Both the position numbers and the translations under genes were made by a program. DNA of 64,000 nucleotides from Acidimicrobiia bacterium (GTDB lineage: Bacteria > Actinomycetota > Acidimicrobiia > IMCC26256 > PALSA-555), in contig SHUY01000001.1 in NCBI GenBank assembly GCA_009694435.1, positions 345-64,344 on the forward strand, written 5' to 3'. Under the pieces are notes generated by a model. That model saw nothing but the letters and a program-made list of their open reading frames with translations. It was not told the DNA's origin and did no database searches. Positions 3,003 through 27,386 of this stretch are shown piece after piece. Within the stretch, counting starts at the first letter, position 1. Every line of letters starts with the position of its first letter.

Positions 3003-3077
3003 TGGAGGCGGCGGCGGGAATCGAACCCGCGTCCAGGGTTTTGCAGACCCTTGCCTGAACCACTCGGCTACGCCGCC
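3003..3077 (-). tRNA. tRNA-Cys (anticodon GCA)
   Basis: The reverse complement GGCGGCGTAGCCGAGTGGTTCAGGCAAGGGTCTGCAAAACCCTGGACGCGGGTTCGATTCCCGCCGCCGCCTCCA folds as a cloverleaf. It has a 7-bp acceptor stem, the anticodon stem-loop AGGGT-CTGCAAA-ACCCT, the T-arm GCGGG-TTCGATT-CCCGC and an encoded CCA. Confidence 0.95.
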
Positions 3078-3153
3078 AAGAATAAGCGTGAATTAATAGA
3101 GTACCGGCAGACGTGTTCCTCGCCTTCGCTTCGGTCGCCTAATATCACCAGTC

Positions 3154-5726: not shown

Positions 5727-5736
5727 GCGAGTATCG

Positions 5737-6528: not shown

Positions 6529-6611
6529 GTTTGGTTATTTTTGACTAAAACGACTAAAACATTGTTTGAGAAAATATTTTAATAACTATCAACTATTACC
6601 AGAGGAGCGTA

Positions 6612-7526: not shown

Positions 7527-7575
7527 CGCCAAAGGTCGCTACGAGCGCGGCTCGGTTCGTCAGCGGATACGCTAC

Positions 7576-7595
7576 ACCTGACGCTAACGTCAGGT
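7576..7595. promoter_or_regulatory. TGAC-N6-GTCA palindrome, copy 2 (extended perfect 8-bp arms ACCTGACG-CTAA-CGTCAGGT)
   Basis: Read directly from the sequence. It lies between the SDR stop (7526) and the hydantoinase B gene, and is followed by TTTATT. Confidence 0.5.
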
Positions 7596-7628
7596 TTATT
7601 GACCGTCAATCCGCAAAGGGGGCCCGCA

Positions 7629-9452: not shown

Positions 9453-9461
9453 GGATTTCTC

Positions 9462-11525: not shown

Positions 11526-11572
11526 CTACAACAATTTCGTGTTTGTCCCATGCGCGTGCGACAATGAAGTGA

Positions 11573-12295: not shown

Positions 12296-12355
12296 GACCA
12301 AATAACGGTTACCTAGTAGTGTCATCATCACTTTGGCCCTACGAGAGGATCCGTC

Positions 12356-13744
12356 ATGACTAGCACTATCTCCCCTGCGCAGCTTGACCACACCGCCGAG
12401 CGTTTACGCAAGGTATTTAACACTGGTCGTACTCGCCCACTCGCTTGGCGCCGCGAACAACTAAAAGGACTGCGGTCAATGCTGATAGAGCGAGAAGAAG
12501 ACTTTCTCGCGGCATTGGCGACTGACCTCGGAAAACCTCGGCTAGAAGCCTGGGTAACCGAGATCGGTTTCACTATTAACGAAATAAATCTAACTCTAAA
12601 AAATCTCAAGCGCTGGACTAAGCCCAAGCGGGTAAGCACGCCCATGTTTATCAAGCCTGGGTCGGGGCGGGTGATAAGAGAACCTCTTGGAACCGTGCTG
12701 GTGATTGCCCCTTGGAATTACCCTCTTCAACTCGCTCTCGCTCCGTTGATAGGAGCCTTGGCGGCCGGAAACACAGTTGCCCTCAAGCCGTCAGAGATCT
12801 CGTCCGCAACTTCGAACACCATCACTCGTCTTGTTCCCCAATACGTTGACGCCGAAGCCGTATCTATCGTCGAAGGGGGTGTGAGCGAAACCCAAAACCT
12901 TCTGCAACAAAAATGGGACTACATCTTTTACACTGGTAACGGTGCTGTTGGTCGTCAAGTTATGGCCGCAGCAGCACAACATCTCACTCCCGTTACGCTT
13001 GAACTCGGCGGGAAAAGCCCAGCCATCATCGATAAGTCAGCCAACCTCGAGGTAGCGGGGCGGCGATTGGCTTGGGGAAAATTCCTTAACTCGGGCCAAA
13101 CTTGCATTGCTCCCGACTACGCCCTGGTAGATAAAAGCGTAAAGGATGAACTGGTTAAATACATCCAGGCGTCTATCACCGATTTTTATGGCTCTGACCC
13201 GTCGACAAGCCCCGATTACGCCCGGATAATTAACGATCGTCATTTTGGTCGGCTTACCGCTTTGATTGATTCGGGTTCGGTTCTTATCGGCGGCCAACAC
13301 GATGGTTCCACTCGTTTCATTGCTCCTACTGTGCTTGATGGAATAAGCGGCAACTCGGCGGTAATGCAAGAAGAGATATTCGGTCCAATTCTTCCGTTGA
13401 TCACAGTTAACAGTTCCGACGAAGCGATTGCTTTTATAAATGAACGCGATAAGCCTTTAGCGCTTTACGTTTTCGCCCAAGACGACAAAGTTATTGATCG
13501 AGTTTTAGATCAGACCAGTAGCGGTGGCGTTTGTGTCAACGGCGTTATCCTCCAGGTTGCTGCCCCGAACTTGCCTTTCGGTGGAGTAGGAGAAAGTGGA
13601 ATGGGCAATTACCACGGTCGAGCCAGTTTCGACATATTCACGCACGCTAAGCCAGTATTACGACGCGGCACTCGCCCTGACCCGGCTTTGGCGTATCCGC
13701 CTTATACAAAAAAGAAAGAAAAAATGATTCGGCGGTTTTCGTAA
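12356..13744 (+). CDS. aldehyde dehydrogenase (class 3 / fatty-aldehyde type)
   Basis: 462 aa with ELGGKSP, the catalytic Cys context GQTCIAPDY, and FGGVGESGMGNYHG. RBS GAGAGGA upstream. Confidence 0.9.
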   Translation: MTSTISPAQLDHTAERLRKVFNTGRTRPLAWRREQLKGLRSMLIEREEDFLAALATDLGKPRLEAWVTEIGFTINEINLTLKNLKRWTKPKRVSTPMFIKPGSGRVIREPLGTVLVIAPWNYPLQLALAPLIGALAAGNTVALKPSEISSATSNTITRLVPQYVDAEAVSIVEGGVSETQNLLQQKWDYIFYTGNGAVGRQVMAAAAQHLTPVTLELGGKSPAIIDKSANLEVAGRRLAWGKFLNSGQTCIAPDYALVDKSVKDELVKYIQASITDFYGSDPSTSPDYARIINDRHFGRLTALIDSGSVLIGGQHDGSTRFIAPTVLDGISGNSAVMQEEIFGPILPLITVNSSDEAIAFINERDKPLALYVFAQDDKVIDRVLDQTSSGGVCVNGVILQVAAPNLPFGGVGESGMGNYHGRASFDIFTHAKPVLRRGTRPDPALAYPPYTKKKEKMIRRFS

Positions 13745-13759
13745 TCTAATTACGCGACC

Positions 13760-14923
13760 TTACCCACGGGGTAGACCTAAAATTCGCTCGGCGATTATGT
13801 TGCGCTGAACTTCGGAAGTCCCCCCCGCGATTGAAGCCGCCCCGCTCCAGAGCCACTGACGCTGCCACTTGCCGTCGCCCGGCAAATTTTCACTTCCCCG
13901 CCATAAAGGTGCTGCGGGGCCAGTAATATTCAATGCTCGCGCTGATAGCGCCTGGCTCATTTCGCTCCAAAAAAGTTTGATCCAACTGGTCTCAGACCCC
14001 GGTTCTTCACCGCGCGCCAAACGCGACAGCGCCCGCCAATTGTGCAGGCGTAGAATCCTCACCTCAACGAAAGATTGAGCTAAGGCGTCGGAAGTTTCAA
14101 CATCGTCGAGCAGGCCTTCGACTTGTGCCAAAGTATAAGCCTCAGTCAGAAACACCTCATGAACGACTTGCTCTTTAAACGCAAATACCGTTCCCCGCTC
14201 ATGAGAAAGCGTAGTGCTGGCAATAGACCATCCCTCATTTACCCCTCCGATCACATTGTCGTCGGGAACAAACACATCCGAGAAAAAAACCTCATTGAAC
14301 TCCGCTTCACCAGTTATTTGTACAAGCGGTCGAATTTCAATTCCGGGTGCTTGCATGTCAACTACGAGGTAGGAGATTCCCGCGTGACGAGATGCCTCGG
14401 GGTTGGTGCGCGCCAAAGCAATCCCCCATCGGGCCCACTGGGCATAACTGGTCCAGACTTTTTGGCCGTTTAACAACCATCCGCCTTCGACTTTCGTCGC
14501 GGTAGTGGACAATGATGCAAGATCAGAACCCGCTCCGGGTTCGCTAAACAACTGACACCAAATTTCAGTGGCGTCAAGTATTGAAGGGAGCCACCGCTTT
14601 TTTTGTTCGTCGGTGCCAAAGGCAAGGAGCGTGGGTCCGACGTTGTTTATGCCAACTCGATTGACCGGTTGCGGGGCTCGCGCCCGAGCATATTCCAAGT
14701 TAAAAAGCGCGACCTCTACTGGAGTAGCCGCCCGGCCTCCGTATTCAACCGGCCAATGGATTCCCACCCAGCGGTCGGTGGCGAGTTGGGCTTGCCAGTT
14801 ACGGCCCCACTCCACCTCTTCGCCTAACGATGAGAACGCAGGGGGCAACTCGAGATTATTAGTCAGCCAGGTACGGATTTCTCCCGCGAAGGCCTGCTCG
14901 GCTTCAGTGAAAGCGAGGTTCAT
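13760..14923 (-). CDS. acyl-CoA dehydrogenase
   Basis: 387 aa with FadE-like organisation. The C-terminus reads GGTSEVQRNIIAERILGLP. Its start overlaps the stop of the acyl-CoA synthetase gene. Confidence 0.85.
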   Translation of the reverse strand: MNLAFTEAEQAFAGEIRTWLTNNLELPPAFSSLGEEVEWGRNWQAQLATDRWVGIHWPVEYGGRAATPVEVALFNLEYARARAPQPVNRVGINNVGPTLLAFGTDEQKKRWLPSILDATEIWCQLFSEPGAGSDLASLSTTATKVEGGWLLNGQKVWTSYAQWARWGIALARTNPEASRHAGISYLVVDMQAPGIEIRPLVQITGEAEFNEVFFSDVFVPDDNVIGGVNEGWSIASTTLSHERGTVFAFKEQVVHEVFLTEAYTLAQVEGLLDDVETSDALAQSFVEVRILRLHNWRALSRLARGEEPGSETSWIKLFWSEMSQALSARALNITGPAAPLWRGSENLPGDGKWQRQWLWSGAASIAGGTSEVQRNIIAERILGLPRG

Positions 14924-16704
14924 AAATCGTAGAACTGTTCGCGTTGGTGTCGAATAAACGAATCCCTCAGAGCCGACTCATCAGCGGCGGCAAAGGGTCG
15001 GTAGGCGCTATCGTCCCACACGAAAACTTGATCTTGCTCCACCCGATCGAGTCGCCATTTTTGATGTACCAATGTTCGTTTGATGATCTTATTGGTACCA
15101 GTGGTCGGTGGATCATTTAATAGTCGCAAATAACGCGGCCGCCACTTAGGCCCAATATCGTCAAGGGAAAGCAACCAAGCACTGAACTCAGCCAGGTTAA
15201 AGTCGGCGCCGTCGCGCAATACCAAGCCGGCCATGACTTGATCTCCAGCTTGATGGTCAGGAACCCCATAGACCGGAGCAAGCACTACGTCAGGGTGACG
15301 GCTAAGAGCGGTTTCAATGGGCTGGGCGGGAAAGTTCTCACCGTCAACTCGCAACCAGTCGGCATTGCGACCAGCGAAATAAAGATAGGAATCTTCATCG
15401 AGATAGCCCAGATCCCCAGTCCAATACCATCCAAAACGCAAGGTGCGCTCATTGGCAACATCGTTGTTGTAATACCCCTCAAAGGGGCCAGCACCGTTGG
15501 TGTTAACTATTTCCCCCACACAATCTTGCGCATTCATTAGCCGACCGTTTGAGTCAAATTGAGCTCGGGGTAACGGCTCACCGTCTTCACTGACTACTTT
15601 TATGAAATCTTCTACTTGCCCTAATGCACCAGGACGTTCTTCACGGTCACTATTTACCGCAATACCGCCTTCAGTGGCACCATAAGCATCGATTACGTCT
15701 ACTCCAAAACGTTGGGCGAAAGAATTCACTACTTCTGGTGACCCTTCGTTGCCAAACGCAACTCGCATAGTGTTGTCGGCATCATCAAATTTTTCGGGAG
15801 TAGAGAGTAAATACGCCAAGGGTTTCCCGGTGTAGTTGAAATAAGTTGAGCCGTAGTTACGAACATCACTTATCCAGCGCGAGGCAGAAAACTTACGAGC
15901 CAGACCAACTGATGCTCCTACCACTAAAGCGGGCGCCCAACCCACCATTAAAGCGTTGGAATGAAATAGAGGCATGCATATGTAACCCACATCGTCGGGG
16001 CTTAAATTCATCATGATCCCCATTCGGGTACCGGTGACAAGGAACCGGCGTTGAGAACAGATCACCGCCTTGGGGGCATCCGAAGTCCCGGAAGTGAAGA
16101 TGAGCGCCCAGAGGGCTTCGGGTCCAGGAGTAATGCCCATCTCGGTGGCTAAATCCCCGCCACCGACAAGATCGAGCGCCTCATCAAGATCATTCCCAAT
16201 AGACCCAGTCGGAGCATCAGGGTCAGTCTCAAGGTACCGATTAGACACCAATAATTCGGGCAAAGCGGAGGCAACCGGTTCGAGGAGGGCTAGATGTTTA
16301 GGTTCGCTAATGACTAAGTCGCAGTTGGAGTGTTGAATGTCGCGCAGCAGGTGTTGCTCTCGGCGAGTGTGATTAAGGCCGACAATTGCCGCTCCGGCTA
16401 GCGCCGCACCACCGAAAGCAAAAAGATATTCGGGAGTGTTATCCAACAAAATTCCAACGTGGATTCCTCGATTTAAATGTTTAGGCCGTTTTTTTTGCCG
16501 ATCGAGAAAAAGGTTGGCGAATTTTTGCGCCTCGGCTAAAAATTCAGCGTGGGTGAAAGATTTATCCCCAAAGGCCAAGGCGGGACGGTGGGCGAATTTT
16601 GGATCAGTGCCGTTGCGGCGCAACAAAGCGGCGGCGTCAACAGCCGGCATCGGTGCTTCGCCGGGGGCAGGAACCGCGCGCGGTGATGGGTGCGAGTTAG
16701 ACAT
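14920..16704 (-). CDS. AMP-dependent acyl-CoA synthetase/ligase
   Basis: 594 aa with the AMP-binding motif FTSGTSDAPKAV, YGATEG, and the GDLGYLDEDSYLYFAGR core. Confidence 0.9.
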   Translation of the reverse strand: MSNSHPSPRAVPAPGEAPMPAVDAAALLRRNGTDPKFAHRPALAFGDKSFTHAEFLAEAQKFANLFLDRQKKRPKHLNRGIHVGILLDNTPEYLFAFGGAALAGAAIVGLNHTRREQHLLRDIQHSNCDLVISEPKHLALLEPVASALPELLVSNRYLETDPDAPTGSIGNDLDEALDLVGGGDLATEMGITPGPEALWALIFTSGTSDAPKAVICSQRRFLVTGTRMGIMMNLSPDDVGYICMPLFHSNALMVGWAPALVVGASVGLARKFSASRWISDVRNYGSTYFNYTGKPLAYLLSTPEKFDDADNTMRVAFGNEGSPEVVNSFAQRFGVDVIDAYGATEGGIAVNSDREERPGALGQVEDFIKVVSEDGEPLPRAQFDSNGRLMNAQDCVGEIVNTNGAGPFEGYYNNDVANERTLRFGWYWTGDLGYLDEDSYLYFAGRNADWLRVDGENFPAQPIETALSRHPDVVLAPVYGVPDHQAGDQVMAGLVLRDGADFNLAEFSAWLLSLDDIGPKWRPRYLRLLNDPPTTGTNKIIKRTLVHQKWRLDRVEQDQVFVWDDSAYRPFAAADESALRDSFIRHQREQFYDL

Positions 16705-16751
16705 GGCGCCAACATTATCTCGCCTCCGGACAACGGATTCGCCCTAGGCTC

Positions 16752-17399
16752 ATGCCCGTGGAAGATCGACTGAACTCTGGACTTTACTTAGAGATGACCG
16801 ATATGGATACCGCTACTTACGCAACCACTCGAGTCCCGGAAGTAAAATCACTTACCGGAGTTGAGCGAGCTTCGTGGTGGACCAACGCGCAACGCGACAG
16901 AACTGACTTGCCCCGGGTTTTGCCCGAATTTACCTTGTTGGGGGTGTACGAAGTCGGTGACGATTTCGACGCCCCCAGCCAAACTCCTTTGGGCATTACC
17001 GGCTATCACTTTCGTCGCACCCCTCGCCCCGGCCAAGGGTCACTGTCTGGACAACCCACTATCGGCTTGTCGCTAGTTTTGATTAGTCCTCGAACGGCAA
17101 AAGATGCGAGGGCTTTGCGCGACTGGGGTGACTTCATTCACTTGCGTCATATTGCTCAAGTTGGAGTTCCGGGCTACACCATGGTTACTCCTTACGAAAG
17201 TGCTGATAAATCCGATCCGCGCTTTCTTCATTTCTACGAAATGGACACCACTGATCCAGAAAAAGCATTTAAATCTATGACTCCTCTAGTCGAAGAAAGA
17301 ATAGGGAAACCGGGTACGGAAAAATTTGATCAGTGGGCTAATCATGAGTCTTTGCGTATTATGTATGTAAATACTTTCCGTCGAGTTGGTAATGACTAA
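16752..17399 (+). CDS. hypothetical protein (no family recognised)
   Basis: 215-aa ORF coupled to the next gene by a TAATG overlap. No motif could be assigned. Confidence 0.5.
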   Translation: MPVEDRLNSGLYLEMTDMDTATYATTRVPEVKSLTGVERASWWTNAQRDRTDLPRVLPEFTLLGVYEVGDDFDAPSQTPLGITGYHFRRTPRPGQGSLSGQPTIGLSLVLISPRTAKDARALRDWGDFIHLRHIAQVGVPGYTMVTPYESADKSDPRFLHFYEMDTTDPEKAFKSMTPLVEERIGKPGTEKFDQWANHESLRIMYVNTFRRVGND

Positions 17400-18013
17400 T
17401 GGATGACGATTTTTTTTCGGTAGTTAAACGCCAGCGTGCGTGCCGGCGTTATCTGGACAAGCCTGTTAGCGATTCTTTAGTAGAAGAAGTGATTACTGCC
17501 GGCACCTTTGCCCCCAGCGCAGAGAATTCACAACCGTGGGAGTTTGTCGTAGTACGAGACAAGTCTCTTCGTGACCAGATACACGATTTAGCGCAGAGAG
17601 CGTGGAGTGGAGGTGGCCGTGATTTTTCTCTCCGCCATCTTGACGAAAAAATACTGGCTGACGTTGATGATGGGATTAGTGGAGGGGGCTACGCCACTGC
17701 TCCGGTGATGATTATCGTGGCCGGCGATACCGAACGCTGCCACCCAAAAGCGATTTCGGCGTCAATTTTGCCCGCAATTCAGAACATGCTTCTCGCGGCC
17801 ACCGCCCTAGGCCTTGGTTCTGCTCTCACCACGATCACTTTAGGATTTGCCTCCGAATTACAAGCAATAGTCGCTCTCCCTGATTCGGTAGTGCCCCAGG
17901 CGATAATCCCTTTAGGCTTTCCGGCTCGTCCCTTAGGGCCGCCGCGACGAGAATCATTTTCTCAACACACTCACTGCGATCAATTCGGTAATGCGTGGGG
18001 CCAAGCTCAATAG
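17399..18013 (+). CDS. nitroreductase-family protein
   Basis: 204 aa. RACRRY...APSAENSQPWEF is the typical FMN nitroreductase N-terminus. Confidence 0.8.
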   Translation: MDDDFFSVVKRQRACRRYLDKPVSDSLVEEVITAGTFAPSAENSQPWEFVVVRDKSLRDQIHDLAQRAWSGGGRDFSLRHLDEKILADVDDGISGGGYATAPVMIIVAGDTERCHPKAISASILPAIQNMLLAATALGLGSALTTITLGFASELQAIVALPDSVVPQAIIPLGFPARPLGPPRRESFSQHTHCDQFGNAWGQAQ

Positions 18014-18933
18014 CCTTCGTCCACTTCAACGACTCCTTCAAGGGGCTCACCGGCCATGAAGTGAACTAAATTCACCGCGAAAGCCTGACGGATGCGTTCA
18101 AATGCTCGAGGAGAAGACCACGAAACGTGAGCCGACAGATGCACTCGCGGGTGAGAATAAAGCCAATGGCCGACCGGCAGCGGTTCCGGATAAACCGTAT
18201 CGAGGCTGGCGTACCGTACTCGCCCATCATCGAGGGCATCCCGCAGCGCTTCTTGATCGATTAATTCACCTCGAGCGATATTGACTATGTGTATTCCGGG
18301 TTTAGCTAAAGCCAATGATTCGGAGTTTAGGAGATGTCTAGTACTGCTAGTGCTGGGAGCAGCCAATACCAAATGATCAGCGGAAGCCAACAAGTCAGAA
18401 AGATCGTGAGCGATTTCTACACCAGGCAATAAAAATTTTTCTGGTTGGCGGCGTAACCCCCGTACCCGCAGGTCAAAAGCCAGCGCCCGCTTTGCCACTG
18501 CGGTGCCAATGCCGCCCATGCCTACGATCCCTAAAGTTTGGCCCGCTAATTCGCCTAGCGAGGCAAGATTCCAGTGCTCCGGCGGCTCGGTCAACCAGCT
18601 TGAAGGGAAGTTTTTTTCGACCGCCAAAATTGATCCCATGACGAACTCTGATATTGGTATCGCACTAACTCCTCGGGAGCATGTAACTATTCGCCCTCGA
18701 AGCAGCCCTGGATCCCAAGCATCGATACCTGTCCCCGGAAGGTGCATCCAAAGAACGCCCATTGCACCGAGTTGTTCGTAAATTGAGTGCCCGGGCCAAG
18801 CGGCACACAGCACTTGCGCGCTCGAGTTTGGCTCTATTGTTTCGTCCGCGGTGATACTGACGACTTCGGCTTCGGGGGCGATGGCGGCGATAGTTTCAGC
18901 CATCTGAGTGCCCATCATGTTTATGATGCGCAT
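18007..18933 (-). CDS. D-isomer-specific 2-hydroxyacid dehydrogenase family, NAD-binding
   Basis: 308 aa with the GIVGMGGIGTAVAKRA Rossmann motif, NIARGELID, and a C-terminal catalytic His context. Confidence 0.8.
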   Translation of the reverse strand: MRIINMMGTQMAETIAAIAPEAEVVSITADETIEPNSSAQVLCAAWPGHSIYEQLGAMGVLWMHLPGTGIDAWDPGLLRGRIVTCSRGVSAIPISEFVMGSILAVEKNFPSSWLTEPPEHWNLASLGELAGQTLGIVGMGGIGTAVAKRALAFDLRVRGLRRQPEKFLLPGVEIAHDLSDLLASADHLVLAAPSTSSTRHLLNSESLALAKPGIHIVNIARGELIDQEALRDALDDGRVRYASLDTVYPEPLPVGHWLYSHPRVHLSAHVSWSSPRAFERIRQAFAVNLVHFMAGEPLEGVVEVDEGY

Positions 18934-18937
18934 TTAA

Positions 18938-19840
18938 TTACGACCCTTCTTTGCGCTCCATGCCACCAGGCATAACCATTCCAACCGTTTGAAGATGTTG
19001 ACCTAGGCCGACATCAAATTGTTCGGCCACTAATTCGGGAGTCCAGCCACTATCGCGCCACATGCTAGCAATCGGTTTGGGTTGTTGAAACAATGTGAAA
19101 GCGTATTCACTACGACCCAGAATTTGCCCGTTGACATGACTAGCTCGTTCAGAAGCCAAAAATGTAACTAAAGGAGCATTGAGCGAAGGGTCTTGCTCGG
19201 GTGGTGGAGCGGTACCACTGCGCTCAAACAGTGCGGCCGTCATACGAGTCGCCCCGGCCGGAGCGACAGCATTGACAGTTATCCCCGAGCGAGCCAACTC
19301 AAGCGCCCAAACGAATGTCATACCCATAATGGCGGCTTTAGCGGCACCGTAGTTGGTTTGACCAAAATTGCCGCGCAAGCCCGCCGAAGAAGTGATATTT
19401 ACAATTCGCCCATAACCTTTTTCTTTCATTATCGGGGCGGCGTGACGAGTGCAATTAAATGTCCCTTTCATATGCACTGCGACAACGGCATCGAAATCTT
19501 CTTCGCTCATTTTTACCAGTGTTCGATCACGTACGATTCCGGCGTTGTTGACTAATACGTCAATTGTGCCAAATTCTTTTACTGCCGCCACGATAATTTT
19601 TTCTGCGCCATAAAAATCGGTAACTGATTCGTAGTTAGGAATAGCAGCACCGCCGAATTCGATGATTTCTGCACACACCGCAGCGGCGGGATCATCTTTG
19701 GTTCCTTGGCCGTCGAGGCTTACTCCAACATCGTTGATAACCAGGCTCGCGCCTTCACGAGCCAAGGACAAAGCAAACTCGCGACCAATGCCGCGACCCG
19801 AACCAGTAACTACTGCAACGCGACCATTAAGAAGACCCAT
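18938..19840 (-). CDS. short-chain dehydrogenase/reductase, MFE-2-like roughly 300-aa type
   Basis: TGSGRGIGRE, NNAG and YGAAKAA. It sits immediately downstream of the MaoC hydratase gene, giving a split MFE-2-like arrangement. Confidence 0.85.
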   Translation of the reverse strand: MGLLNGRVAVVTGSGRGIGREFALSLAREGASLVINDVGVSLDGQGTKDDPAAAVCAEIIEFGGAAIPNYESVTDFYGAEKIIVAAVKEFGTIDVLVNNAGIVRDRTLVKMSEEDFDAVVAVHMKGTFNCTRHAAPIMKEKGYGRIVNITSSAGLRGNFGQTNYGAAKAAIMGMTFVWALELARSGITVNAVAPAGATRMTAALFERSGTAPPPEQDPSLNAPLVTFLASERASHVNGQILGRSEYAFTLFQQPKPIASMWRDSGWTPELVAEQFDVGLGQHLQTVGMVMPGGMERKEGS

Positions 19841-19844
19841 CTCG

Positions 19845-20252
19845 TCAATTCTGGTCGAGAGCGGTGGCAGAACCGTTAAGCGCTTCTACTCCGTCTTGAT
19901 TAGAGCAAGTGCATTCAAGATCAACAAAAGTTTTACCTTCTTCTTCACGGATGGCCGTCACCGTAGCGGTAAAGGTCAGCGTGTCCCCTGGCCACACTGG
20001 TTTAGAAAAACGCACCTGGAACTTACGCAATGCTTCGGGTCCAAACTCATCGGTGAGTACCCGAGCCATCAATCCAGCCGTGAGCATTCCGTGGCCGAAC
20101 ACTGAAGGATTTCCGGTTGCAGTGGCAATAGTCTCGTCGTGATGCATAGGGTTAAAGTCTCCGGAGGCGCCGGCGTATTTGACAAAATCGGTACGGCTGA
20201 TTTTTTCAATCACTATTGGCGTCAGTTGCTCGCCTACAGTCAGATTCGTCAT
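19845..20252 (-). CDS. MaoC-like (R)-specific enoyl-CoA hydratase (hot-dog fold)
   Basis: GDFNPMHHDE motif. The ORF track extends to 20291, but the ATG at 20252 (MTNLTVGEQL) leaves a realistic divergent promoter region. Start uncertain. Confidence 0.75.
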   Translation of the reverse strand: MTNLTVGEQLTPIVIEKISRTDFVKYAGASGDFNPMHHDETIATATGNPSVFGHGMLTAGLMARVLTDEFGPEALRKFQVRFSKPVWPGDTLTFTATVTAIREEEGKTFVDLECTCSNQDGVEALNGSATALDQN

Positions 20253-20285
20253 AGGTAGGCAGCGTATCGCAAATAGGGCTGAACG

Positions 20286-20299
20286 TGACACGACCGTCA
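20286..20299. promoter_or_regulatory. TGAC-N6-GTCA palindrome, copy 3 (divergent MaoC/TetR promoter region)
   Basis: TGACACGACCGTCA lies between the preferred MaoC start (20252) and the preferred TetR start (20322). Confidence 0.5.
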
Positions 20300-20321
20300 G
20301 TTGCCCCTACGCTTAGCCGCA

Positions 20322-20963
20322 ATGAAGCCCCTAACGCCCGAAAGCGACCTTTTACCGCGGGGGCAAAAAACCCGAGATCGCCTCCTTGGCGCGGGGTCGC
20401 GGGTATTTTCTGAGCGGGGATACCACAGCACGCGGGTGGAAGACATAGTTGTCGAGGCTAAAACTTCCCACGGCACCTTCTACCTATACTTCTCCTCAAA
20501 ACAAGAGCTTTTCGAAGTACTGGCGGGTGAAGTCGTAGAAGAACTTTCAACCGTGGCCGATTCGTGTCCCGACTTAAGCCAAGACATTTTGGTGCAAGAG
20601 TGGTTGGTCCGATTTGAAGTGGTGTACGAAAAACGCCACGCATTTTTACGGACTTGGATTGAAGCAGAAATCGTTAGCGGCGAAATAGGCCGACTAGCCG
20701 AAGGGATCGTGACTCGCTTTACTCAGGCCTTAACTCGCCGGCTGGAAGAAACTCCGATTGGACTCGCGCCACGACCAGCGGCAGTGATACTGATATCTAT
20801 GGTGGAGAGGCTTGAGTACTACGTCCATGGCCGAGCTATTGACGCTAAACCTCTCGAAACTATTGCCACGCTCGCCGGGGTGATTTCGGCCCTTGTGGGT
20901 ACTACCACTACTTCTAATGGCTTAAACACTGGGTCTGAGCGCCGTGCAAAGGCAAGAGCCTGA
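20322..20963 (+). CDS. TetR/AcrR-family transcriptional regulator
   Basis: N-terminal HTH region TRDRLLGAGSRVFSERGYHSTRVEDIVVEAKTSHGTFYLYF. The ORF track starts at TTG 20301, and ATG 20322 is preferred here. Confidence 0.85.
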   Translation: MKPLTPESDLLPRGQKTRDRLLGAGSRVFSERGYHSTRVEDIVVEAKTSHGTFYLYFSSKQELFEVLAGEVVEELSTVADSCPDLSQDILVQEWLVRFEVVYEKRHAFLRTWIEAEIVSGEIGRLAEGIVTRFTQALTRRLEETPIGLAPRPAAVILISMVERLEYYVHGRAIDAKPLETIATLAGVISALVGTTTTSNGLNTGSERRAKARA

Positions 20964-20976
20964 CGCTAGTGTCAGG
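20959..20976. promoter_or_regulatory. TGAC-N6-GTCA palindrome, copy 4 (CCTGAC-GCTAGT-GTCAGG)
   Basis: Read directly from the sequence. It overlaps the TetR stop codon (20961..20963) and lies about 50 nt upstream of the next gene. Confidence 0.45.
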
Positions 20977-21025
20977 TGCAAGTAAAGCAAGCGTCCAAAT
21001 GAGCCAAAACTATTGAGGGGGGAAT

Positions 21026-21559
21026 ATGCAAAAGAAATTTGTCGTAGCGATCGTAACTGCTCTAGGAATTGCCACGCTGGCCGTTGGTGCGACTGGAGCT
21101 AACGCCGCACCAACTAAAAAAGCCAAAGTTTCTCTATGTGCGGGTAAAACTAAAGCCGCTGCTATCAAGGCCATTAACACCGCTTACGCCAACGTTCTAG
21201 ACGGAAGTAAAGGTCTTACCGGTGAACAAAAGACCGAGTCTATCCAGTTTGCCAGCGGTGCAAAAGTAAATCAAGCGTGGCGAGATGCGTTTCTTGCCAG
21301 TTCGGCCAAGAACTCCGCCGCCGCGAGCACGACGTCAGTTGCCGTTGACAAGGTGACTTGTGCTGGGAAAAAATCTGCTGACGTTATCTTTACTCTTGTG
21401 TTGGGTGGATCTCGCGCCGAGGGACTAGCTCCCCCCGGAACTGCAGTCCTAGAAGGGAACACATGGAAAATTAGTGCGATAACCATGTGTGACATGCAAG
21501 CTCTCGGAGACGCAACCGTGCTTGAAAATGAGCCCTGCTTGTCAATCGCTAGTTCCTAA
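21026..21559 (+). CDS. secreted protein of unknown function
   Basis: 177 aa with the N-terminal signal peptide MQKKFVVAIVTALGIATLAVGATGANA. Strong RBS GAGGGGGG. Confidence 0.6.
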   Translation: MQKKFVVAIVTALGIATLAVGATGANAAPTKKAKVSLCAGKTKAAAIKAINTAYANVLDGSKGLTGEQKTESIQFASGAKVNQAWRDAFLASSAKNSAAASTTSVAVDKVTCAGKKSADVIFTLVLGGSRAEGLAPPGTAVLEGNTWKISAITMCDMQALGDATVLENEPCLSIASS

Positions 21560-21621: not shown

Positions 21622-22398
21622 TTAGGCGTTAGTTTCTCCGTGTACCGCAGGCATAATCTGATCCGCCAAGTCGCCCAACTCGTCGGTTCGCCCCGATAGG
21701 GCAACTTTTCCTTTAGCCATCACTACTACTGTGTCCGCCAGACTGAGTGCTTGGCGCACGTGCTGTTCAACAATGATCAAAGCGGTGCCCGATTTGCTAA
21801 TAACGTCAAGCGTCTCATAGACCTCATCGATAATTACCGGAGCGAGCCCAAGAGACAGCTCATCGGTCATTAATAGTTTTGGCTCATGGACTAGCACTCG
21901 GGCGAGAGAGACCATCCTCTGTTCACCACCCGACAAGGTGCCCGCGAGTTGCCCTCGTCGCTCCCCTAGCCGGGGGAACAAGTCGTAGGAACGATTAATC
22001 GCCAACTTGGCTTTTCGCCGGCCAAAAACTTGACGAAAAGTAAGAAGAAGGTTTTCCTCTACGGTAAGAGAAGCGAACACTGAACGACCTTCAGGGGCGT
22101 GAACGATCCCCATCTGCGCCAAACGATGAGTTGCGACTCCGGTTATATCTTCACCCTTAAAAAATATTTTTCCCGCGGTGGGCTTGACTAAACCACAGCA
22201 CACTCGCACCACGGTTGTCTTGCCCGATCCGTTAGAACCCAGCAGCGCAAGAGCAGATCTTTCTTCCACCTTGAGAGAAACTCCAAATAAGGAGCGAAAC
22301 GGTCCGTAACTTGCTTCCACGTCGCGCAGTTCAAGTAATGGCGGTGAAGCCGTGGCCGCATTTTTCACTATCGCTGAATCGGCATTCGTCGAACTCAT
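21622..22398 (-). CDS. ABC transporter ATP-binding protein (LivF-like)
   Basis: 258 aa with Walker A GSNGSGKTT, signature LSGGEQ and Walker B LLMTDE. Confidence 0.9.
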   Translation of the reverse strand: MSSTNADSAIVKNAATASPPLLELRDVEASYGPFRSLFGVSLKVEERSALALLGSNGSGKTTVVRVCCGLVKPTAGKIFFKGEDITGVATHRLAQMGIVHAPEGRSVFASLTVEENLLLTFRQVFGRRKAKLAINRSYDLFPRLGERRGQLAGTLSGGEQRMVSLARVLVHEPKLLMTDELSLGLAPVIIDEVYETLDVISKSGTALIIVEQHVRQALSLADTVVVMAKGKVALSGRTDELGDLADQIMPAVHGETNA

Positions 22399-23166
22399 TT
22401 ACATATCCCCCAAATAAGCTCGACGAACGTTAGCGTCGCCCAGTACGTATTCCGTTTCTCCGGAAGCGATCACCGTGCCGAAATCTAAAACATAAAGGCG
22501 AGTTACTAGGCTTTGCACCATCTCAACATCATGTTCAACCAACAAGACGGCCAAATTGCGAAGTTTTTGTACCGATCGCAGCCGCATCGCCAAGGCGGCA
22601 GTTTCTTTAACGTCAAGCCCCGATGACGGCTCGTCCAGCAATAAGAGCCGAGGCTGAACCATAAGAGCCCGGCCGATCTCAACCAAGCGACAGCGCCCCA
22701 GACTCAAGGATTCCACTGGGCGATCGGCTTCGGATTCAAGTTCCAGTAACGCCAGCATCTGATTTACTAGTTCACTCTCGGCTTCAGTCGGAGCCGAACG
22801 ATTGAGTAAATCTTTCCAGAGACGACCCGTTCCGTTACGGCGACGCTCCGCCACCATGAAATGTTCCCGCACTGTCATTCCCGCAAAAAGTTCAAGTCGT
22901 TGAAATGTCCGCCCAATTCCTAACTGAGCTCGTTTGTGAATTGGCAAAGAACTGATGTTGATACCGTCAAAGTAAACATCACCGATTTCGGGGCGGAGAC
23001 TTCCGTTGATGCAATTGAACAAGGTCGTTTTACCCGCCCCGTTAGGGCCAATGAGTCCAACCATTTCACCTTGTTGCACACTTAGATTTATATCGGTTAA
23101 AGCGCTAATGCCCGAAAAATGTTTGGTGACATCGTTGACTTCAAGTAGTCCAATAGGCCCTCGCAT
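22399..23166 (-). CDS. ABC transporter ATP-binding protein (LivG-like)
   Basis: Walker A GPNGAGKTT, LSLGRCR and LLLLDEP. The ORF track extends to 23325, which would overlap the permease gene by 122 nt. ATG 23166 (MRGPIGLLEV) or GTG 23199 are more plausible starts. Confidence 0.85.
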   Translation of the reverse strand: MRGPIGLLEVNDVTKHFSGISALTDINLSVQQGEMVGLIGPNGAGKTTLFNCINGSLRPEIGDVYFDGINISSLPIHKRAQLGIGRTFQRLELFAGMTVREHFMVAERRRNGTGRLWKDLLNRSAPTEAESELVNQMLALLELESEADRPVESLSLGRCRLVEIGRALMVQPRLLLLDEPSSGLDVKETAALAMRLRSVQKLRNLAVLLVEHDVEMVQSLVTRLYVLDFGTVIASGETEYVLGDANVRRAYLGDM

Positions 23167-23203
23167 TGACCCATCAACGCTCGTTCGTGGATCTTCCTGC
23201 ACT

Positions 23204-25948
23204 TCAAACACCCCCCGAATCAATTTGAGCGGGAATGGAAGCGCTTGATTCTTCGTCAATGTTTGAAACCGACTCGTCGGGTGACTCAAATCCTTCGCCC
23301 CCGATAGCGAGTTCGTTGCTCGCACCTTGGACTCCGGCGACCCACTGAACCCAAGTGATCACAAAAATTGCTACGAGAACAAATACCGGCCACCCGGAGG
23401 GCGGGAAACCGTGATTGATAAAACTCCCGGTTGAACTACTGGCGTCGGTGACTGAGGTGCGGAAGAATAAAAAAGCACCAAAAAGCAGAAAGCCAAACGG
23501 CGCTCGTCCTTCTCGCCAACTGATGGGGCTAGAAAGCCAGCCGCGATTATCGGCAATTCGGTTGATCTGAACGGGCAACAAGAAAAACGCCACCGAAGCA
23601 ACGCCCGCGGGGATCCCTGCGAGCACGCAGTGCAGGAGTTCGGCTCTCGGGACCCAGCCTTGGTTGTAGAACAACGCTCCCACTAACGCACCCACCACAC
23701 CACCGGCGAATAAATAGATCCAGTCGCGCGCAACACCGCCCGCTTGATGCAGACGATGGCTGGTAGCGAACATCCACACCAACGCAAACAACAGGCTTGG
23801 CACTAGAAAAACCAGAAGAGTAACTGTGTGGATAGCGACCCAACGACCCTGTATCGGGCTACGAACTAATACGTAAAGCAGATACAAAGCCGGGCCAGCT
23901 AGTACTGGGGCAACCACTTGCCACACCGGACGGTAGGTGGTGGGTAGTTTTTCGACTCTTACCAACTCCTCGGCCCGTTTTTTTAATGTTCGCTGACGGG
24001 CAGTAGCCAAAATACTCTTACGGGTTTGAAACTCGACGATGCCCTCGGGGTGGCGGGCATAAGTTATGGCTCCAAACCCAAACCCAATAATGGCAATTGC
24101 CGGGGGCAGGCCTAGTGCTTCAAACAACCACTGAAAGACCACAAAGCCAATAGCCGCATTTACGGCACCGTCAACCGTGCGCGACCCTAATGTCACGACC
24201 AAAACTACCCACACCACACCAAAAAGAGCGGGGTAAGTCGCCACTGGTTCAACTCGTCCCTGCGCCATCCCGATAAGAGCGCCACCGAGACCGGCAATCC
24301 CGGCTGAGAGGGAGAATAAAATGATTCGTAATGAAGTCGCGTTAATCCCAATAGATGCGGCGGCATTTTCACTACCCCGTAAGGCAGCAAGGTATTGTCC
24401 GATAGTCCCTTTGCGAATAAAAATCACCAAAAAAGCCACTAAGGCGAAAGCAATAAAGACCACTAAAAACCACATTCGATCGCCTTGGGCAAAATCGGGT
24501 CGGCTCACTGCTATGCCGTACTCGCCTTGTGATATCGCTTCCCGACGAAAAATAACTTTTTCCGCCATAAAAGCAAACGCCAGCGTGGCCAACGAAAGAT
24601 AAAGTCCCGCCAAGCGCACTACTGGTCGGCGAAGAATAAAACGACCGATCAACGCGGGAAGTCCATCGATAAACAAGACAAATAAAGCTCCGACTATTGC
24701 CGCCACTATCGCGCCGATTACCAACGCCAACAATGCCGGAACATTAAACTGTTCGGCTGCATTCGCCATTGCGAAACCACCAAAAGCGGCAAAAGACGCC
24801 TGGGCTAACGAAATTTGACCGCCAAGGCCAGTAAAAATAGTGATGGACAAAAAGACTACGGCGAGAGCGAAGGCGTCGGTTAGGCGTGTCACCCAAAGCG
24901 GACTGACGATTGTCATCATCACTAAAACGAATCCAGCAATAAAAATTGGGAAAGCGATCTTTGACATTCGTTGCAAATTGGCATCTTTGTATTCGTGAGC
25001 CATTGCCGGAGGGGGTGGATCTACCCCCGAGAGTGGGTCTGAGACCACCCTTTGCTCACGAAGTTTGGGCCAAAAAACTAGTAAAGCGAAGAGAACGATA
25101 AACGGGAAAGACGGACGAACGTCTTGGGCGAACGAACCGGTGGTGCCCACGATGTCAGGTAGGGCCCTTTCACCGACTCCGAGCAACAACCCCCCCAGCA
25201 AAGTAAACGGTATGCTCACAAAACGCCCCACCGCGGCGGCGGCGATGGCAGCAATGATCAGCAGCGTGTAGGTATTGCCGTCGAGAATGAAATAAAGCGG
25301 AGCCAAAAGCACGCCTGCTAATCCGGCCAAAGTGCTCGAAAGTATCCATGAGGTCATGCTTACGCGGTCGGCATCGACCCCCGCCAACTCCACCATGCGA
25401 GGGCTTTCCACTACTGCCCGCATCTGGAGCCCGATTGAGGTGAAGCGAAACATTAAACCGAGAAGAATCACCGCTACTACCGTGAAAACAACCGTAGTGA
25501 GTCGATCGGCCGAAATGAAATAACCACCGACATCAAAAACTTTAAACTTATCAATGCCGATAAGTGGAGCAATGCTTGGCGGCGCTTCGGCGGGTTGAGC
25601 ACCAAAAAACAACTTAACTATTTCCGGTAAAGCCAAAAGTAACCCCAAAGCGGTAACGAGTTTTACTTGCCATGGCGCGGTTCGCATATAGCGAAATAGA
25701 GCTCGGTCAAGTAATAATCCTAATAACGGGGAAAAAATTAGTACTGCGAAAACAAACCCCAGCCACAAGGGCCAGTGGCTATTGATAACCGTCTCATAAA
25801 ATACTGCCCCCGAAGCAAACGCCTGCGCGCTAAACGCGAGGTTAAATACTCCTGAAGTTTTGTAAGTAAGAACGAGCCCAACCGCAACTAGAGCGTAAAT
25901 GCAACCAACGGGAGCACCCTCAATCAGCCAAGAGATGAACTGGTTCAC
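23204..25948 (-). CDS. fused LivH-like + LivM-like ABC permease with an extra C-terminal membrane domain
   Basis: 914 aa. A LivH-like N-terminus (GCIYALVAVGLVLTYK) is followed by a LivM-like middle (TGLGGQISLAQASFAAFGG). The last roughly 270 residues add further hydrophobic helices not present in the 660-aa paralogue at 50753..52735. Confidence 0.8.
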   Translation of the reverse strand: MNQFISWLIEGAPVGCIYALVAVGLVLTYKTSGVFNLAFSAQAFASGAVFYETVINSHWPLWLGFVFAVLIFSPLLGLLLDRALFRYMRTAPWQVKLVTALGLLLALPEIVKLFFGAQPAEAPPSIAPLIGIDKFKVFDVGGYFISADRLTTVVFTVVAVILLGLMFRFTSIGLQMRAVVESPRMVELAGVDADRVSMTSWILSSTLAGLAGVLLAPLYFILDGNTYTLLIIAAIAAAAVGRFVSIPFTLLGGLLLGVGERALPDIVGTTGSFAQDVRPSFPFIVLFALLVFWPKLREQRVVSDPLSGVDPPPPAMAHEYKDANLQRMSKIAFPIFIAGFVLVMMTIVSPLWVTRLTDAFALAVVFLSITIFTGLGGQISLAQASFAAFGGFAMANAAEQFNVPALLALVIGAIVAAIVGALFVLFIDGLPALIGRFILRRPVVRLAGLYLSLATLAFAFMAEKVIFRREAISQGEYGIAVSRPDFAQGDRMWFLVVFIAFALVAFLVIFIRKGTIGQYLAALRGSENAAASIGINATSLRIILFSLSAGIAGLGGALIGMAQGRVEPVATYPALFGVVWVVLVVTLGSRTVDGAVNAAIGFVVFQWLFEALGLPPAIAIIGFGFGAITYARHPEGIVEFQTRKSILATARQRTLKKRAEELVRVEKLPTTYRPVWQVVAPVLAGPALYLLYVLVRSPIQGRWVAIHTVTLLVFLVPSLLFALVWMFATSHRLHQAGGVARDWIYLFAGGVVGALVGALFYNQGWVPRAELLHCVLAGIPAGVASVAFFLLPVQINRIADNRGWLSSPISWREGRAPFGFLLFGAFLFFRTSVTDASSSTGSFINHGFPPSGWPVFVLVAIFVITWVQWVAGVQGASNELAIGGEGFESPDESVSNIDEESSASIPAQIDSGGV

Positions 25949-25983
25949 ATTTACTACTTAAACGAGAGGGACAATTCTTACCG

Positions 25984-27330
25984 CTACGAGCCTGCGGAAG
26001 TAGTCGTGGTCGTGCCCGTCTTGGCGGGAAGGTAGTACGGGTCGTCCAGAGTCGGGGGCCGAGGGTTGTCGGGGAAACAGACTATTGGCTGCCCGGGCTT
26101 ACCGAAACGAGGAACGAATTTTCCGTTGACCGCTTCAACGTAGGCGGCACACGCCTGAGTGTCAGGACCATGACCGTTACTCCAGTTCTGCGGCGGAAGC
26201 ATTCCGTTGGCAGTGAAGGCGGTGAAACTGTTGATTGCATCGACTACCGAAGCCTGAGTGAAGTCTTTGCCCGCTTTCAATAATCCGTCGACGAACATAT
26301 TGGCGTTGATCCAGCCCGCTTGGGATTGCTCGCTAGGAGCAATCCCTTTTTGTTTCATTGCTTTGAGGTAAGCCTTGGCTCCAGCGGGGAGCACCTTTGA
26401 CTGCCACGGAATAAATGCGAAACCAAAAAACCAACCGTTAAGTTGGGAACCGTATTTTTTGATAGTTGATTCACGATAACCTTCAGGGGCGTAAAAAGTT
26501 ACTCCGGTGCCTCCAGCTTGTTTGAGCCCTTGAGATATCTTGAACGCTCCACCAAAATCCATACAAGTAGAAACGAAGTCGACATTTTTATCTTTGAGTG
26601 CCTGAACATCGGCACTTACGTCGCTGAAGCCGAACTCGAGACTCGTGTCTTCGTAGACCAAGTCAATTCCGTATTGCTTAAATCCTGCGCGAGTACCTTC
26701 CGCACAAGCAGCAGAAGAGGAGTGCGTATAGGTAAATAAGGCTGCTCGCTTAGCTCCTTTTTTAAGAGCAACGTACGCGGGACTAATTTGTCCACAACTA
26801 AAGCAAATGAACGAACCCTTTTCACCAAAGAGAGTCGGACGAGGGCAAACTTTGTCGTACTTGCCCGCAGCTATTGCGTCCTCAACCGCCCGATGTTCCG
26901 TACTGGTTCCACACCAGCCAGCGTCAATGTTGAGACCAAAGGTTGGAACATTTTTACTCGCGAGGTAAGCGCTGCCAGCAAACGAATTGGTCATCACCGG
27001 CATAACGGCAAAAACTTTTTTCTCTTCGACTAAAGATCGGGCGGCGCGAATGTTTCCCGAAGGCGAACCCAAGTCATCAAGTTGCGCGACCAGTTTCAGT
27101 TTTTTCCCGTAGACCCCACCTTTTTTATTGATGGTGTCAAAATACGCGTTTACGCCATCAAAGCCGTCGGCGTAGGGAACATTGAGGACGCTCATTGGGC
27201 TGGATAACCCGCCCACTTTAATCTCGGTCGCGGTTACTCCCGGACGACCCGCGCCTTGGGCTTGAGCGGTACTGACCGTTCCCAAACCAATCGTGCTTAG
27301 CGCCACTACCAATACCAGTAGACGTTTCAT
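25984..27330 (-). CDS. ABC substrate-binding protein (Liv/type-1 periplasmic binding fold)
   Basis: 448 aa with the signal peptide MKRLLVLVVALSTIGLGTVSTAQA. RBS AGGGGGG. It is the first gene of the SBP-permease-ATPase-ATPase operon. Confidence 0.85.
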   Translation of the reverse strand: MKRLLVLVVALSTIGLGTVSTAQAQGAGRPGVTATEIKVGGLSSPMSVLNVPYADGFDGVNAYFDTINKKGGVYGKKLKLVAQLDDLGSPSGNIRAARSLVEEKKVFAVMPVMTNSFAGSAYLASKNVPTFGLNIDAGWCGTSTEHRAVEDAIAAGKYDKVCPRPTLFGEKGSFICFSCGQISPAYVALKKGAKRAALFTYTHSSSAACAEGTRAGFKQYGIDLVYEDTSLEFGFSDVSADVQALKDKNVDFVSTCMDFGGAFKISQGLKQAGGTGVTFYAPEGYRESTIKKYGSQLNGWFFGFAFIPWQSKVLPAGAKAYLKAMKQKGIAPSEQSQAGWINANMFVDGLLKAGKDFTQASVVDAINSFTAFTANGMLPPQNWSNGHGPDTQACAAYVEAVNGKFVPRFGKPGQPIVCFPDNPRPPTLDDPYYLPAKTGTTTTTSAGS

Positions 27331-27368
27331 AGCCCCCCTATCAATCAGTTGTGGGCACTCTATCCAAA

Positions 27369-27386
27369 TCTGACGGCCGTGTCAGG
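27369..27386. promoter_or_regulatory. TGAC-N6-GTCA palindrome, copy 5 (TCTGAC-GGCCGT-GTCAGG)
   Basis: It sits in the divergent intergenic region between the Liv SBP gene (start 27330, minus) and the PIG-L gene (start 27432, plus). Confidence 0.5.

Follow-up and report, generated by a model that had tools for sequence, protein, structure and literature searches.

The locus described here raises the question of whether a short palindrome in the promoter region of a TetR-family gene is the operator of that regulator and, if so, which other genes share it. The palindrome, TGAC-N6-GTCA, lies at 20286–20299 of a 64-kb stretch (52% G+C) of an Acidimicrobiia genome (contig SHUY01000001.1); this stretch is called the window below, and all coordinates are window positions. 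The original prediction had listed five copies, every one intergenic or at a gene boundary, as the core of a candidate regulon. An exhaustive scan found seven exact copies, compared with 0.78 +/- 0.82 (maximum 3) in 100 dinucleotide-preserving shuffles. Five of the seven (2266, 7579, 20286, 20961 and 27371) fall in non-coding sequence or on a gene boundary, in a window whose non-coding share is about 4.3% by its map of long open reading frames (ORFs) (binomial P = 2.9e-6). The other two lie inside genes, at 19549–19562 in an SDR gene (18938–19840, reverse strand) and at 29168–29181 in an SBP_bac_5 gene (28356–29987, forward strand), and both carry T at position 5, a base found in 3% of real sites. 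One-mismatch copies showed a mild excess only, with 25 beyond the exact ones versus about 19 expected.

The five copies first listed had been given with correct coordinates and sequences. Three of them (7579, 20961 and 27371) do extend to CTGAC...GTCAG, four (2266, 7579, 20961 and 27371) begin TGACG, and the copy at 20961 overlaps the TetR stop codon, its TGA being that stop. The description as intergenic or at a boundary holds for these five; the two intragenic copies had not been listed. Because the latter are intragenic, are not conserved and score poorly against the matrix described below, we treated them as probable chance matches, and we conclude that five of the seven copies are real sites and that two arose by chance, where about 0.8 would be expected. 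TGAC-N6-GTCA is almost certainly a functional operator, and the five sites are numbered here as operators, with their scores and ranks in the matrix scan.

20286–20299: operator 1, TGACACGACCGTCA, in the 69-bp divergent MaoC/TetR region; 18.8 bits, rank 4.
20961–20974: operator 2, TGACGCTAGTGTCA, over the TetR stop codon and upstream of a gene for a secreted protein of 177 amino acids (aa); 23.3 bits, rank 2.
27371–27384: operator 3, TGACGGCCGTGTCA, between an ABC-transporter binding-protein gene (reverse strand) and a PIG-L gene (forward strand); 22.3 bits, rank 3.
7579–7592: operator 4, TGACGCTAACGTCA, upstream of a hydantoinase-B/caprolactamase-like gene (HydB); 23.7 bits, rank 1.
2266–2279: operator 5, TGACGCTGCTGTCA, in the divergent CMD/isochorismatase region; 16.6 bits, rank 5, the weakest of the five.

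Relatives were compared as stretches of +/-10 kb, in three sets: four close-relative loci with the same gene order (L001–L004; TetR 66% identical, 54–57% G+C), 80 genome loci from species-representative Acidimicrobiia genomes (L005–L084; TetR 36–47% identical, 61–74% G+C) and about 65 metagenome loci, which were found via the HMG-CoA-synthase-like/DUF35 protein (59–84% identical) and have no TetR gene in the fetched stretch. We found that the enrichment is specific to both the half-site and the spacing. Among 24 palindromes made from permutations of A, C, G and T with an N6 spacer, TGAC was the commonest half-site, with 7 copies in the window, 177 in the genome loci (79 for the runner-up) and 43 in the metagenome loci. 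When the spacing was varied from 0 to 12 in the genome loci, enrichment appeared at N6 alone (177 versus 6–22).

A symmetrised matrix built from 194 distinct sites, none of them from the genome of the window, gave the consensus c-TGAC-R-c-n-n-g-Y-GTCA-g with A/T-rich outer flanks. A matrix scan of the window had been suggested with the original prediction, and this independent matrix placed the five intergenic sites at ranks 1–5 (23.7, 23.3, 22.3, 18.8 and 16.6 bits), followed by a hit of 14.0 bits. The intragenic exact matches scored 4.6 bits (29168, rank 42) and 3.7 bits (19549, rank 69). Seven further window junctions yielded no matrix score above 2.9 bits, namely isochorismatase/HMG-CoA-synthase-like, enoyl-CoA hydratase/SDR_a, AMP-ligase/unk215 (a 215-aa unknown protein), hydantoinase A (HydA)/HAD, HAD/aldehyde dehydrogenase, PIG-L/SBP5 and unk177 (the 177-aa protein)/ABC; three of the seven carry operators in relatives.

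The motif is conserved over well above 100 loci, in genomes of 52–75% G+C. In the close relative, exact copies occupy all five orthologous places when L001–L004 are taken together with L088, another stretch of the contig of L003. Exact copies were found at the three TetR-proximal intergenic places in L001–L003 and at two of them in the shorter L004, and L088 has them between the divergent CMD and isochorismatase genes and just after the SDR gene. L001–L004 have no copy at the places orthologous to 19549 and 29168. Among the 80 genome loci, 53 have an exact copy −37 to −285 bp from the start of the TetR match, and 20 of the other 27 have a one-mismatch TGAC(A/G)......GTCG there, most with the same flanks. 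Further exact copies in these loci lie at about +590 to +815 from the TetR match start (27 sites) and at about +5.5 to +7.3 kb. Mapping of window-gene homologues assigned the recurrent sites to the divergent MaoC/TetR junction, to the junction between TetR and the next gene, to that of the divergent ABC binding-protein and PIG-L genes and, fourthly, to that of the divergent AMP-ligase and unk215 genes, where the site is often fused to a TAGAGT hexamer. The gene order around the first of these, with the 2-hydroxyacid dehydrogenase, SDR_b and MaoC genes running away from the site on one side and TetR on the other, is conserved in the genome loci.

Considered one by one, operator 1 has an exact or one-mismatch counterpart at the orthologous place in L001–L004 and in most of L005–L084, operator 2 is kept just after the TetR gene in L001–L004 and in 27 genome loci, and operator 3 is kept between the binding-protein and PIG-L genes in L001–L003 and many genome loci. 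In the metagenome loci, exact sites lie upstream of HydB (L089, L105, L106, L108, L120, L130 and L148), between the hydratase and SDR genes and immediately upstream of the HMG-CoA-synthase-like gene. L088 and L148 have them between isochorismatase and a divergent CMD or MaoC gene, and operator 5 is kept there together with its flanks. The motif thus recurs at orthologous clusters, where the original prediction had proposed to look for it, at MaoC/TetR, TetR/downstream gene, binding protein/PIG-L, CMD/isochorismatase and upstream of HydB. The proposed enrichment in intergenic over coding sequence was also found beyond the window: by tblastn mapping, 7 of 177 genome-locus sites lie in mapped coding sequence versus 87 expected (P = 7e-41), and 0 of 43 metagenome-locus sites versus 20 expected (P = 3e-12).

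Three observations on these loci stand apart. Operator and −10 hexamers are kept across a shift in base composition, from 52% G+C in the window and 54–57% in the closest relative to 61–75% in nearly all others. In L088, a promoter-operator cassette at 14442, TACGCTgcaccTGACACCAACGTCAggg, is retained after the SDR gene, and the hydantoinase pair downstream of it is replaced by another gene (SDR-like, then an amidohydrolase), the control module being kept and the cargo exchanged. The records of L020, L040, L044, L055 and L058 (67–71% G+C) are labelled as Bifidobacterium breve, Bifidobacteriaceae or Burkholderiales metagenome-assembled genomes, labels that probably reflect faulty binning or mislabelled public entries.

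The sites are phased with −10-like hexamers. Of 215 non-redundant sites, 173 carry TANNNT at one or another of a small set of fixed offsets; in high-G+C relatives, the background is 0.16 occurrences per offset among 430 oriented sites. Where TANNNT lies 8–11 nucleotides (nt) after GTCA (offsets +22 to +25), the operator would cover the −35 box and spacer; at 18–20 nt after GTCA (+32 to +34), it would cover the −35 region of a divergent promoter. Where the hexamer ends 1–5 nt before TGAC or over its T (−11, −8/−7 and −5), the operator would cover the transcription start, and TANNNT also occurs within the N6 spacer (+6). This fixed phasing points to repression by promoter occlusion, and we infer a repressor that excludes RNA polymerase because the operator positions overlap core promoter elements. 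In the window, four putative −10 hexamers accompany operators 1, 3 and 4.

20308–20313, forward strand: putative −10 TACGCT of the tetR promoter, 8 nt after operator 1 and 8 nt before the ATG at 20322.
20261–20266, reverse strand: putative −10 TACGCT of the maoC promoter, 19 nt from operator 1 and 8 nt before the MaoC ATG at 20252.
27357–27362, reverse strand: putative −10 TAGAGT of the ABC transporter operon, 8 nt from operator 3, with the phasing seen at the tetR promoter.
7568–7573, forward strand: putative −10 TACGCT, 5 nt upstream of operator 4.

Operator 1 lies 22 bp upstream of the TetR ATG, and its left half-site, gTGACa, is placed as a −35 box with a 17-nt spacer to TACGCT. In an alignment of seven orthologous MaoC/TetR intergenic regions, conservation is concentrated in islands at the palindrome, at the hexamer on either side of it and at the start codons of both genes, and the maoC promoter block GAGCGTATCGC is conserved in the same alignment. 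At operator 4, the hexamer 5 nt upstream implies that the operator would cover the transcription start, and a TAnnnT hexamer stands 5 nt upstream of the operator at all the orthologous HydB sites listed above. The PIG-L gene beside operator 3 is probably transcribed from a separate promoter located downstream of that site, which would leave the ABC transporter operon as the regulated unit at 27371.

The divergent genes at 20250–20324 both show TACGCT-N8-ATG, as do L001, L005, L009, L010, L014 and L062, which suggests leaderless or nearly leaderless messages. This spacing favours the ATG at 20252 over the far-upstream GTG at 20291 as the MaoC start and the ATG at 20322 over the TTG at 20301 as the TetR start. 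In L001 the TetR start was annotated at an ATG within the operator, and the true one probably lies further downstream. The phasing also supports GTG 7629, after AAGGGGG, as the probable HydB start, and offers a first sequence-based view of promoter architecture in Acidimicrobiia, with starts that appear leaderless or nearly so. A second palindrome, TTGACCGTCAA (TGAC-N1-GTCA), occupies 7598–7608 in the HydB leader, 5 nt after operator 4. It was rejected as part of the system, being absent from the HydB leaders of L089, L105, L106, L108, L120, L130 and L148.

Which protein binds these sites? The product of 20322–20963 carries a TetR_N helix-turn-helix domain (PF00440, E = 9.5e-16, 57.8 bits against a cutoff of 24, residues 28–72 of the long ORF), and the stretch S-H-G-T-F-Y-L-Y-F of its recognition helix is invariant in an alignment of 46 sequences. 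It has 374 homologues at E <= 0.001; the best 120 carry no specific function name, and the organism-labelled ones among them belong to Acidimicrobiia or Actinomycetota. An AlphaFold model (pLDDT 89.1) shows nine helices in a TetR fold, and its best Foldseek matches are all TetR-family structures at TM scores of about 0.7. Closest in structure are EthR, FasR (solved with C20-CoA) and the FadR proteins of Sulfolobus and Bacillus (TM 0.62–0.74, 17–25% identity). Sequence and profile searches of the PDB with the TetR protein returned distant relatives only, and in NCBIfam it passed no equivalog model, its sub-threshold matches being confined to the N-terminal DNA-binding region. By these comparisons, the protein belongs to no named TetR family tested.

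Half-site centres 10 bp apart, or one helical turn, suit a single TetR dimer. One helix-turn-helix of the dimer would contact each half-site, and the bound protein would block RNA polymerase where the operator overlaps core promoter elements. TetR regulators within 200 bp of a divergent neighbour usually regulate that neighbour (PMC3511530), and regulation of MaoC fits this rule, the gap between the two genes being 69 bp. Taken together, these observations suggest that the TetR protein of 20322–20963 very probably binds TGAC-N6-GTCA and represses from it. The idea of an autoregulated TetR operator common to catabolic operons and a transporter is supported by the intergenic placement, the conservation at orthologous clusters and the independent matrix. 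The candidate targets were delimited on a gene map from Pfam and NCBIfam scans, which covered the window genes from 1 to 46 kb.

207–2214, reverse strand: CMD-like protein, DUF35 protein (ChsH2-type OB/zinc ribbon) and thiolase-like lipid-transfer protein; candidate target operon, kept in L088 and L148.
2357–7526, forward strand: isochorismatase-like protein, HMG-CoA-synthase-like/DUF35 fusion, thiolase, enoyl-CoA hydratase and SDR; candidate target operon.
7599–13744, forward strand: hydantoinase B/A (caprolactamase-like), HAD hydrolase and aldehyde dehydrogenase; candidate target operon.
13760–16704, reverse strand: acyl-CoA dehydrogenase and AMP-ligase (Pfam/NCBIfam).
16752–18013, forward strand: unk215 and nitroreductase (Pfam/NCBIfam).
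18007–20252, reverse strand: MaoC dehydratase, SDR and 2-hydroxyacid dehydrogenase (Pfam); candidate target operon.
20322–20963, forward strand: TetR-family regulator of 213 aa, with no second TetR gene found among those scanned in the first 46 kb.
21026–21559, forward strand: 177-aa protein with a hydrophobic segment at its N-terminus and, in an orthologue, a weak match to Mtb12_C; candidate target.
21622–27330, reverse strand: Liv-type ABC uptake system (binding protein, fused permease and two ATPases; Pfam), with conserved context; candidate target operon.
27432–28244, forward strand: PIG-L family gene (Pfam/NCBIfam).
From 28356, forward strand: Opp/Dpp-type ABC system (Pfam/NCBIfam).

On this map the operators occupy three divergent junctions, CMD/isochorismatase (2266), MaoC/TetR (20286) and binding protein/PIG-L (27371), and two co-directional ones, SDR/HydB (7579) and TetR/unk177 (20961). 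Operator 1 would act both on the regulator's own promoter, giving autoregulation, and on the divergent maoC-SDR-dehydrogenase operon; operator 2 would act on the downstream secreted-protein gene, operator 3 on the Liv-type ABC uptake operon and operator 4 on the hydantoinase/caprolactamase-like operon. Operator 5 would serve two divergent operons, CMD-DUF35-thiolase and isochorismatase-HMG-CoA-synthase-like-thiolase-hydratase-SDR. In relatives, the latter has extra operators before the HMG-CoA-synthase-like gene and before the SDR gene. Derepression would most likely occur when the C-terminal domain binds an intermediate of the pathway, probably an acyl-CoA thioester. This guess follows from the content of the regulon (uptake system, CoA ligase, acyl-CoA dehydrogenases, hydratases, 3-hydroxyacyl-CoA-type dehydrogenases and thiolases) and from the nearest structures being EthR, FasR and FadR proteins, and whether the inducer is an acyl-CoA we regard as an even call.

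Four other explanations were weighed against binding by this TetR protein. It seems unlikely that a factor encoded elsewhere, for example a global regulator, binds a real operator of which the local TetR gene is merely one target. Sites do occur on many contigs without a TetR gene in the fetched stretch, and dimeric helix-turn-helix proteins of other families might in principle also fit a 4-N6-4 palindrome. However, distant sites are to be expected of a regulon, the motif stands directly upstream of the TetR gene in most of the 80 loci (exactly or with one mismatch) and directly downstream in 27 of them, and we found no other regulator among the scanned window genes (1–46 kb) or among the window-gene homologues mapped around TetR. 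In addition, the invariant recognition-helix stretch of the homologues is matched by an invariant half-site. A promoter element is a much less likely explanation still. On this account TGAC would form the centre of a −35 box resembling TTGACA, and two such boxes, divergent and overlapping, would make up the palindrome; this would agree with gTGACa exactly 17 nt upstream of TACGCT at the tetR promoter, with TANNNT 8–11 nt after GTCA at many sites in other genomes and with the location of several sites between divergent genes. Yet the palindrome is also found just downstream of −10 hexamers (−11, −8/−7, −5) or containing one (+6), which are not −35 positions, sites 7579 and 20961 lie between co-directional genes, and both half-sites and the N6 spacing are kept far more strictly than a −35 box requires.

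We give hardly any credence to an RNA hairpin with a stem of 4 to 6 bp and a 6-nt loop, for instance a terminator or stabiliser at the TetR stop. A stem of 6 bp could arise from CCTGAC...GTCAGG at 20959–20976, the copy located at the 3′ end of the TetR gene, but no T-run follows it, and a terminator scan flagged nothing at the TetR stop or operator 2. What is conserved, moreover, is base identity (TGAC and GTCA constant, with GTCG as a common variant) rather than pairing with covariation, and the −10 phasing would put many copies over the transcription start or upstream of it. That a short palindrome simply accumulated by chance is a negligible prospect as well. Chance does appear to account for 19549 and 29168, in line with the small number of chance copies expected, but none of the 100 shuffles reached seven copies, and the intergenic placement, the conservation in relatives and the specificity for the N6 spacing and the TGAC half-site all speak against it. 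For the five intergenic copies, chance is already refuted by the shuffles, the same-composition palindromes and the spacing controls.

Several points weigh against the TetR protein as repressor at all five sites and against an acyl-CoA as its inducer. The assignment of the motif to this protein draws on co-localisation and on the autoregulatory position of operator 1, and the acyl-CoA ligand is suggested by gene content and distant structural neighbours. The TetR genes of the genome loci occur in two contexts, beside MaoC or beside AMP-ligase, and paralogues may for this reason share the motif; for the many sites on contigs whose fetched stretch lacks a TetR gene, the binder could be a paralogue or some other factor. 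The operator that relatives carry between the AMP-ligase and unk215 genes is absent from the window (16705–16751; best match 3 mismatches, 2.9 bits), a site that the lower-G+C lineage of the window has apparently lost. Site 2266 is the lowest-scoring of the five, and its in-phase −10-like hexamer is imperfect (TAGCGG). Finally, a scan of 20150–21100 with a simple sigma-70 consensus found no promoter, so that the promoter assignments follow the looser actinobacterial TANNNT pattern.

Among known systems, that of KstR is the closest analogue in logic, with an autoregulated TetR and a 14-bp palindrome over the lipid-catabolic promoters of a whole lineage. KstR (Rv3574 / MSMEG_6042) is a mycobacterial, autoregulated TetR-type repressor of lipid and cholesterol catabolism with a 14-bp palindrome, core TnnAACnnGTTnnA, in its own promoter and further intergenic copies before many lipid and beta-oxidation-type genes, conserved across the whole lineage (PMC1995591). 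The two regulons have comparable types of target (acyl-CoA ligase, acyl-CoA dehydrogenase, MaoC, SDR, thiolase or lipid-transfer protein and enoyl-CoA hydratase), and their 14-bp motifs agree in having T at position 1, C at 6, G at 9 and A at 14. They differ in that TGACRCnnGYGTCA, the consensus here, has an invariant GAC at 2–4 (C rather than A at 4) and an invariant G at 11. The lineages differ as well, KstR belonging to Corynebacteriales and the present system to Acidimicrobiia, and no KstR chain occurs among the best 60 PDB matches of the TetR protein by sequence or profile; of solved structures, EthR, FasR and FadR come nearest to it, at <=25% identity. No steroid ring-opening enzyme of the KshA, KstD or Hsa type was recognised among the genes scanned within the first 46 kb. 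The KstR2 operator, AnCAAGnnCTTGnT (PMC3068626), does not match the consensus either. The remark in the original prediction that the half-site differs from the KstR and KstR2 boxes is therefore borne out, the published motifs being as given there and both different.

The acyl-CoA-responsive regulators FadR (YsiA) of Bacillus subtilis, FadR of Sulfolobus acidocaldarius and FasR of Mycobacterium tuberculosis likewise have a TetR fold, matched by the model at TM 0.62–0.72, and control fatty-acid metabolism genes. Identity with Bacillus-type FadR (NF053878, 35.2 bits against a cutoff of 200) and with FasR (NF053731, 35.4 bits against 330) was rejected, both matches covering the N-terminal region only. 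NCBIfam moreover lists FasR as an activator, and the placement of the present sites points to a repressor instead. EthR of M. tuberculosis is the closest solved structure and the sole full-length profile match (positions 4–206, E ~5e-14; TM 0.71–0.74), at 18–21% identity to the TetR protein. EthR binds a long operator as a cooperative multimer and controls a single monooxygenase gene, unlike the dispersed 14-bp palindrome and catabolic regulon described here. Short inverted half-sites one helical turn apart, as in the present motif, are found in the McbR operator (TAGAC-N6-GTCTA) and in the RutR box TTGACCAnnTGGTCAA, which literally fits TGAC-N6-GTCA. However, the RutR box calls for C at position 5 followed by A at 6; the sites here prefer R and C, with those two bases in 3% and 8% of them. 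Identity with RutR was rejected (TIGR03613, 22.1 bits against 368; NF011584, 20 against 230). In the literature we found no paper describing the motif TGAC-N6-GTCA or a TetR regulon in Acidimicrobiia, nor a described transcription factor-operator pair for the class.

The operator and its regulon are thus deeply conserved and of a standard type, with no earlier description found. The mechanism would be the usual TetR repressor-operator arrangement, which is not surprising in itself but is useful for annotating and probing an uncultured class. It is conceivable, at somewhat less than even chances, that the TetR protein and its box form a class-wide master regulon of Acidimicrobiia with a role comparable to that of KstR in mycobacteria. 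Such a regulon would tie Liv-type uptake to a set for R-specific beta-oxidation (MaoC, SDR, AMP-ligase and acyl-CoA dehydrogenase), to a caprolactamase/hydantoinase-like ATP-dependent enzyme pair and to an HMG-CoA-synthase-like/DUF35/thiolase complex. The operator could then be a genomic marker that delimits a carbon-source pathway in abundant uncultured Acidimicrobiia of freshwater, soil and sludge and leads towards its inducer, and joining scattered operons into one regulon would narrow the search for the substrate consumed. Nearly all retrieved homologues and loci come from metagenome assemblies, and the operator provides a cheaply testable handle in the form of 14-bp probes and one 213-aa protein.

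The enzymes of the candidate operons were also compared with NCBIfam models. No specific substrate was assigned from these matches, all of which were generic and below cutoff. The best matches of the AMP-ligase were CasI, FadD1 and FadD17, the acyl-CoA dehydrogenase was PimC-like and the aldehyde dehydrogenase MdlD-like, and hydantoinase B and A best matched caprolactamase subunits (256 and 592 bits against cutoffs of 1000). HydB is 80–85% identical between genomes of 52% and about 70% G+C, far above TetR (36–47%) or the neighbouring genes (7599–11525; L089, L105, L108, L130 and L148). At 3154–5726, in a catabolic-looking operon under an operator, an HMG-CoA-synthase-like domain is fused to DUF35 (zinc ribbon and OB) and followed by an SCP-x-type thiolase, a module that resembles the archaeal thiolase/HMG-CoA synthase/DUF35 complex. 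In the transporter operon, a permease ORF of 914 aa with two BPD_transp_2 regions (22399–25948) is an apparent LivH/LivM fusion. About 120 bp of it are shared with the long version of the ATPase ORF upstream, and the ATPase start is probably later than GTG 23325. Finally, the spacer between the enoyl-CoA hydratase and SDR_a genes (6529–6611) is very A+T-rich and contains a tandem 9-mer, GACTAAAAC GACTAAAAC, and no operator; in relatives, an operator stands at this junction directly after a TAGAGT-like hexamer.

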